The position numbers and the translations under genes are program-made. Under the pieces are notes generated by a model. It had not been told where the DNA came from. It ran no database searches and saw only the letters and a list, made by a program, of their open reading frames with translations. 240 nt of DNA from Escherichia coli. GTDB lineage: Bacteria; Pseudomonadota; Gammaproteobacteria; Enterobacterales; Enterobacteriaceae. Shown here in pieces: positions 1-240 of the stretch. The DNA lies in assembly GCF_003334255.1 (NCBI RefSeq), contig NZ_QOWU01000277.1; one strand, 5' to 3'. How positions within the stretch are numbered: the first letter of the stretch is position 1; each line of letters begins with the position of its first letter.

Positions 1-240
1 TCACTGAGAACGTCCCACGCCTTACGCTGTTGTGCCAGGTACGCATTAAAGGTCATCCGCGGCTCTGTGCCCCCGAATCCATCCGGGACCGTCTGGTCGC
101 AGTACTGCCCGATGGCATACAGCGCCCACTTGTCCACATCCGCCGCCCCCAGGCGTTTTCCCATCCCGTAGCGCGGGTGAGTCAGCATGTCCCACAGGCA
201 CCAGGCCGGGTTGTTGCTGTATGCCGGTTTCAGACTGCCG
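1..240 (-). CDS. J: Internal fragment (partial at both ends) of a lambdoid phage tail-tip / host-specificity protein, lambda gpJ-like (central tail fiber). Codon register is the complement of + positions 3-239, giving 79 complete codons.
   Basis: Seen in sequence: the reverse-complement frame reading + positions 239 down to 3 has no stop codon in 79 codons; the other two minus-strand frames hit stops (e.g. TGA at + 232-234, TAA at + 46-48). Codon usage is strongly biased as in enterobacterial genes (CTG for Leu, CCG for Pro, GCG for Ala; third-position GC about 61/79, or 77%). From memory, not a search: the translation closely matches the lambda gpJ segment ...KPAYSNN-AWCLWDMLTHPRYGMGKRLGAADVDKWALY-IGQYCDQ-VPDGFGGTEPR...NAYL--QRKAWDVLS. 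No start or stop is in the window, so the gene continues past both edges. Confidence 0.88.
1..240. mobile_element. Part of the tail-morphogenesis module of a lambdoid phage or prophage (no element boundaries in window)
   Basis: Inference from the gpJ-like CDS: J-family tail-tip genes are found in lambdoid phage genomes and in prophages of enterobacteria. GC (62.5%) is above a typical enterobacterial chromosomal average, in line with lambdoid tail regions. No att site, integrase or repeat is visible here, so phage versus prophage cannot be decided. Confidence 0.6.

Follow-up and report, generated by a model that had tools for sequence, protein, structure and literature searches.

The lambda tail tip and related systems

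The closest described system is the tail tip of phage lambda. The central protein of this structure is gpJ, which forms a trimer. With its N-terminal hub domains (HDII-insertion, HDII, HDIII and HDIV), and jointly with gpL, the trimer closes off the tail tube in a cone; past the hub come two FNIII domains, then a helical shaft, a beta-prism fibre and, at the C-terminus, the receptor-binding domain (PMC10721106; PMC11101478). The receptor is bound by the C-terminus (PMC11101478), after which a signal is passed upward, the hub rotates, the gpI plug is released and the tube is opened for the exit of the DNA (PMC10721106; PMC11101478). Landmarks given for lambda gpJ are FNIII-A at residues 72-215, beta13 of the HDII-insertion at 216-223 and the beta-sandwich insertion of HDIV at 483-569; around residues 262-340, the part of the protein that is of concern here, these papers supply flanking landmarks only and no numeric boundaries of HDII, HDIII and HDIV (PMC10721106; PMC11101478).

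The stretch of DNA analysed here, called the window, is 240 bases long with a G+C content of 62.5%. It was proposed from its letters alone to be an internal piece of a gene of the lambda gpJ family on the minus strand, lying in a phage or prophage tail module. Comparison with lambda gpJ (PDB 8iyk, 8xcg and 9e7m; NCBIfam NF049904) placed the window in the same family and in the same segment, residues 262-340, with 70 of 79 residues identical and no gaps. In J genes of Stx-converting and other lambdoid prophages of E. coli (the PhiR12 series, Stx1 and Stx2 phages, CP-1639 and BP-4795), which are annotated as host specificity protein J, all 240 bases were matched at 93-99.2% DNA identity, and there was no difference in kind from the window. 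These variants differ mainly by synonymous third-position changes and, beyond the window, by mosaic C-termini. A far more distant likeness in sequence was found with J-like tail-tip proteins of other siphophages and tailocins, namely the F2-pyocin tail fibre (PDB 25vf), 9l9p and the J-like protein gp24 (PDB 23gd), which are 1148-1204 aa long, belong to other hosts and have other distal fibre and receptor parts. Over 78 residues the segment was aligned with them at the equivalent position, about residues 269-352 (E 1.4e-25 to 1.3e-14), and these matches show that the segment forms part of the hub's conserved core.

Coding frame of the window

Six-frame translation showed that frame 2 of the minus strand (-2) is open throughout, with 79 whole codons at plus-strand positions 3-239, while minus frames 1 and 3 are closed by stops. 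The single uninterrupted frame that had been described was therefore present, but frame 3 of the plus strand (+3), which had gone unmentioned, was also open across the whole window. The minus-strand feature at 3..239 corresponds to codons 262-340 of gpJ (tip attachment, central tail fibre or host-specificity protein J) and its translation is GSLKPAYSNNPAWCLWDMLTHPRYGMGKRLGAADVDKWALYAIGQYCDQTVPDGFGGTEPRMTFNAYLAQQRKAWDVLS. The whole window, 1..240 on the minus strand, is interior to the J coding sequence, base 240 being the third base of codon 261 and bases 2-1 the first two of codon 341. In a locus that is 100% identical to the window (L002), the reverse complement of the window begins at nucleotide 783 of the coding sequence and is in phase with the annotated CDS, so that the peptide represents residues 262-340 of a J protein of 1176 aa.

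An open frame of 79 codons is not in itself beyond chance, since at least one open frame was found in 47% of mononucleotide shuffles of the window and two open frames in 10%, and the case for coding is therefore carried by homology. Frame -2 has a GC3 of 0.77, with CTG, CCG and GCG as its dominant codons, and it ranked first of the six frames in codon log-odds (+0.07 with host neighbours as the training set, +0.24 with other prophage genes), followed by +3. The enterobacterial-type codon bias claimed by the sequence-only reading agrees with this ranking, but the small log-odds margin gives it weak support.

Substitutions were compared in six homologous segments of 75-99% identity, from PhiR12_1, a lambda-type DE3 prophage, a Salmonella prophage, PhiR63_2, Stx1_12188 and Tritos. 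Differences fell mainly on the third codon position of frame -2 (5, 5 and 28 at the three positions in the comparison with DE3; 12, 11 and 37 with the Salmonella phage), most altered codons were synonymous in that frame (23 of 32 against DE3), and the frame was free of stops in all six homologues. Purifying selection acts on frame -2.

Membership in the gpJ family

The 79-aa peptide was aligned over its full length and without gaps to residues 262-340 of the lambda tip attachment protein J (PDB 8iyk, chain J; E 1.2e-46), the E-values for the structures 8iyk and 9e7m ranging from 1.2e-46 to 1.9e-46. A high-identity match over all 79 residues, by which the family assignment was to be checked, was thus obtained. 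With the NCBIfam model NF049904 (lambda_TipJ) the fragment matched positions 262-340 at E 1.2e-54 and 185.3 bits, a score that is to be read against a curated cutoff of 1950 bits set for the whole protein, which a fragment of 79 aa alone is too short to reach. The full J ORF of L002 scored 2135.9 bits over model positions 1-1130 and was above that cutoff. The translation of frame -2 matched eleven PHROG families, other tail families among them, and the match to PHROG 31, "central tail fiber J", had an E-value of 2e-52.

In contrast to these profile searches, the Pfam scan of the 79-aa fragment gave no match even at E up to 10, so that the proposed HMM confirmation of the translation rests on the PHROGs and NCBIfam. 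The Pfam result is explained by the position of the fragment. In the full J of L002, Pfam domains were found at residues 86-207 (FNIII-A_GpJ), 331-492 (Phage-tail_3), 609-712 (Ig_J), 714-816 (Ig_J_second) and 871-998 (Phage_Tail_Tip), and the fragment lies mostly in the gap between the first two. The complete protein has the domain architecture of the gpJ family, i.e., an FNIII-A insertion in the hub, two Ig/FNIII domains and a tip fibre.

Based on these results, the window is almost certainly an in-frame part of the interior of gene J from a lambda-like temperate siphophage, which most likely resides as a prophage in an E. coli chromosome. The assignment to the lambda gpJ family, and to an internal part of the gene, was borne out by the lambda structure 8iyk, by lambda_TipJ, by PHROG 31 and by the DNA matches alike. 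The family is already known, the fragment is an ordinary member of it and nothing was found that contradicts the gpJ assignment; the earlier judgement that no novel system is involved was correct.

Relatives and genomic neighbourhood

Megablast of the window returned 154 phage records, the best of them PhiR12 phages at 99.2% identity; one of these, PhiR12_1, carries the annotation 'tail tip host specificity protein J'. Of 5,426 complete E. coli genomes, 2,211 contained the window; the median number of copies in these was 2 and the maximum 12. Seven E. coli chromosomes matched it at 100% DNA identity under a gpJ annotation. Among the matches listed for phages and E. coli, all annotated records were named J, host-specificity or tail. 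Matches at the nucleotide level extended to phages of Salmonella, Ralstonia, Rhizobium and Pseudomonas, and the lambda-type DE3 prophage was about 84% identical in DNA (202 of 240 bases).

Two of the seven chromosomes with identical copies were examined (loci L002 and L003), and both contained a complete lambdoid late region with the canonical H-M-L-K-I-J tail module. Their genes include those for protease, decoration, capsid, FI, head-tail joining, tail tube, G/T, tape measure, M, L, a K-like C40 peptidase, I, J and tail fibre, and the J ORF is of full length in both (1176 and 1157 aa, respectively) and free of internal stops. The lambda-type DE3 prophage has the same gene order, H-M-L-K-I-J-lom. 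J was accordingly found after H, M, L, K and I and before lom or the side tail fibre gene in all the related loci concerned (PhiR12_1, L002, L003 and DE3), which is the place after L-K-I that it also occupies in lambda. The tail module context asserted for the window was confirmed by the annotated neighbourhoods of these related loci.

At the junction between prophage and host (L002 3160-3761; L003 2733-3391), both loci adjoin yecD-aspS-nudB-yebC, and a truncated 'hypothetical' pseudogene lies at the junction. Integration of both prophages in the yecD/yecE region would fit this arrangement, and a Stx2a phage that is among the matches of the window takes its name from yecE (Stx2_12E129_yecE).

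Alternative explanations

Many lambdoid prophages in multi-copy E. coli genomes are defective. The source of the window could on that account be a pseudogene or the decayed remnant of J in a prophage that is cryptic or defective, instead of a functional tail-tip gene. The copy numbers in carrying genomes given above point in the same direction, and the 240 bases cover only part of J, so the rest of the gene may be broken. However, frame -2 is intact across the window, both identical loci carry a full-length J ORF within a complete head-tail module, and near-identical copies occur in phages of the PhiR12 series, whose recorded hosts are E. coli K-12 MG1655 or E. coli C. A remnant is thus unlikely as the source of the window. 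Far less probable still is derivation from the J-like protein of an F-type tailocin or another tail-like machine that is not a phage. A recognisable counterpart of the segment is conserved in the tail fibre protein of the F2-pyocin (25vf, E 1.4e-25), but the DNA is 97-100% identical to J genes of E. coli prophages and phages. Genes for capsid, decoration, protease and packaging are present in the matching loci and mark them as phages and not tailocins.

The open frame on the plus strand (+3, at 3..239) raises the question of a real gene on that strand, either alone or overlapping J. It has no stop over all 79 codons and, as described, it came second in codon log-odds. These properties follow, at least as regards openness, from the sense strand: +3 is antisense to the coding frame and exactly in register with it; only TTA, CTA or TCA codons on the sense strand would close it, and frame -2 has none of these. 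Among the shuffles, two open frames arose in one case out of ten. Moreover, a PHROG search with the +3 translation gave no match even with E-values of up to 1 admitted, so that no better match in a different frame, which would have spoken against the gpJ assignment, came from the other open frame. In three of the six homologues (DE3, PhiR63_2 and Stx1_12188) it is interrupted by a stop, and the altered codons, mostly synonymous in -2, were nearly all non-synonymous in +3 (32 of 32 against DE3, and from 41 of 44 up to all across the homologues). On these three grounds the antisense ORF was rejected as a gene and judged to be a non-coding mirror of the sense codon choice; a protein encoded by +3 is extremely improbable. 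Similarly, there is hardly any likelihood that +3 represents an overlapping gene or an antisense transcript inside the conserved stretch of J that codes for the hub, within this sub-lineage of lambdoid prophages. The reading of the window as an in-frame piece of gene J on the minus strand is therefore retained.

Searches for other elements within the window were negative. Rfam gave no match at E up to 1, the scans for promoters and terminators detected no promoter-like or terminator-like site, no gene boundary was found, the Chi site was absent from both strands, and the repeat search returned only two-copy matches of 10-12 nt, which are at chance level.

Role of the segment and host specificity

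Residues 262-340 come after the HDII-insertion and FNIII-A (to residue 223) and before the beta-sandwich of HDIV (483-569), a position that places them in the hub scaffold. By analogy with lambda, the segment would belong to the conserved scaffold of the hub that builds and gates the tail tip, and not to the part that recognises the receptor. The window is transcribed from the minus strand within the late tail operon H-M-L-K-I-J, and the segment, as part of the gpJ trimer, may take part in closing the tail tube and in its receptor-triggered opening, as the homology to lambda suggests.

In the comparison with lambda J, the bins covering residues 251-350 were the best conserved (88%). The full J proteins of the identical loci are 1157-1176 aa long compared with 1132 aa in lambda, and in both L002 and L003 the C-terminal region, with its fibre and receptor-binding parts, shares just 8-37% identity with that of lambda, so that the receptor need not be LamB. 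Although the windows of the two loci are identical, the proteins of their J genes (L002 9492-13022; L003 9549-13022) were 94-100% identical per 50-residue bin to residue 850, with 100% in all bins but one, whereas identity fell to 62-70% at residues 851-1000 and to 19-27% at residues 1001-1176, i.e., the last 175 residues or so. The distal fibre and the receptor-binding part have here been exchanged as in a mosaic. An Ail/Lom gene follows J in L003 and is absent in L002.

The sequence-only reading had called the gene a host-specificity gene. The name fits the gene as a whole, but the segment itself is conserved hub and not the receptor-binding end: the window covers residues 262-340 of about 1130-1180 and lies outside the C-terminal receptor-binding region. 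The hub placement, and the conservation of the segment while residues 1001-1176 diverge, make the name unfit for it. Since the receptor-binding C-terminus is exchanged independently, the window is uninformative on host range. There is no new biology inside the window, and its sole value is that of an anchor, fixing the strand, the frame and the tail module of a lambdoid prophage (late operon, minus strand) for the annotation of its surroundings.

Observations in related loci

The spacer between I and J in L002 (13023-13277) is AT-rich and 255 nt long, compared with about 60 nt in the lambda-type DE3 prophage. It contains an ORF of 32 codons on the operon strand, with an equivalent ORF in PhiR12_1 (L001 7128-7226), and a terminator-like hairpin just upstream of J; promoter-like and terminator-like signals are present on both strands. 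On the opposite strand, a sigma-70-like promoter (11/12) has a terminator-like hairpin about 85 nt downstream, and these signals could be those of a small antisense transcript or a moron. Copies of the spacer occur in 146 phage records, most of them of Stx-converting phages, and among the matches listed the majority of records leave it unannotated. Of the known prophage sRNAs, AgvB and AsxR have been located close to PR' and Q, and other contexts within phage operons are given for the Pas sRNAs (literature on prophage sRNAs). An Rfam search of the spacer gave no match, and together with the differing published locations this led to the rejection of AgvB, AsxR and Pas as its identity.

In PhiR12_1, an insert of about 2 kb (L001 8647-10659) separates L from K within the module for assembly of the tail tip. 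An antirepressor-like gene was found there along with three small ORFs, of which one is on the operon strand and two are on the other strand. L002 and L003 lack this insert and have L directly next to K. Further genes were seen downstream of the prophage tail fibre gene in both loci (L002 5049-7801; L003 4681-7149), and these could be genes for a tail-fibre tip or chaperone, or an adhesin-like moron.
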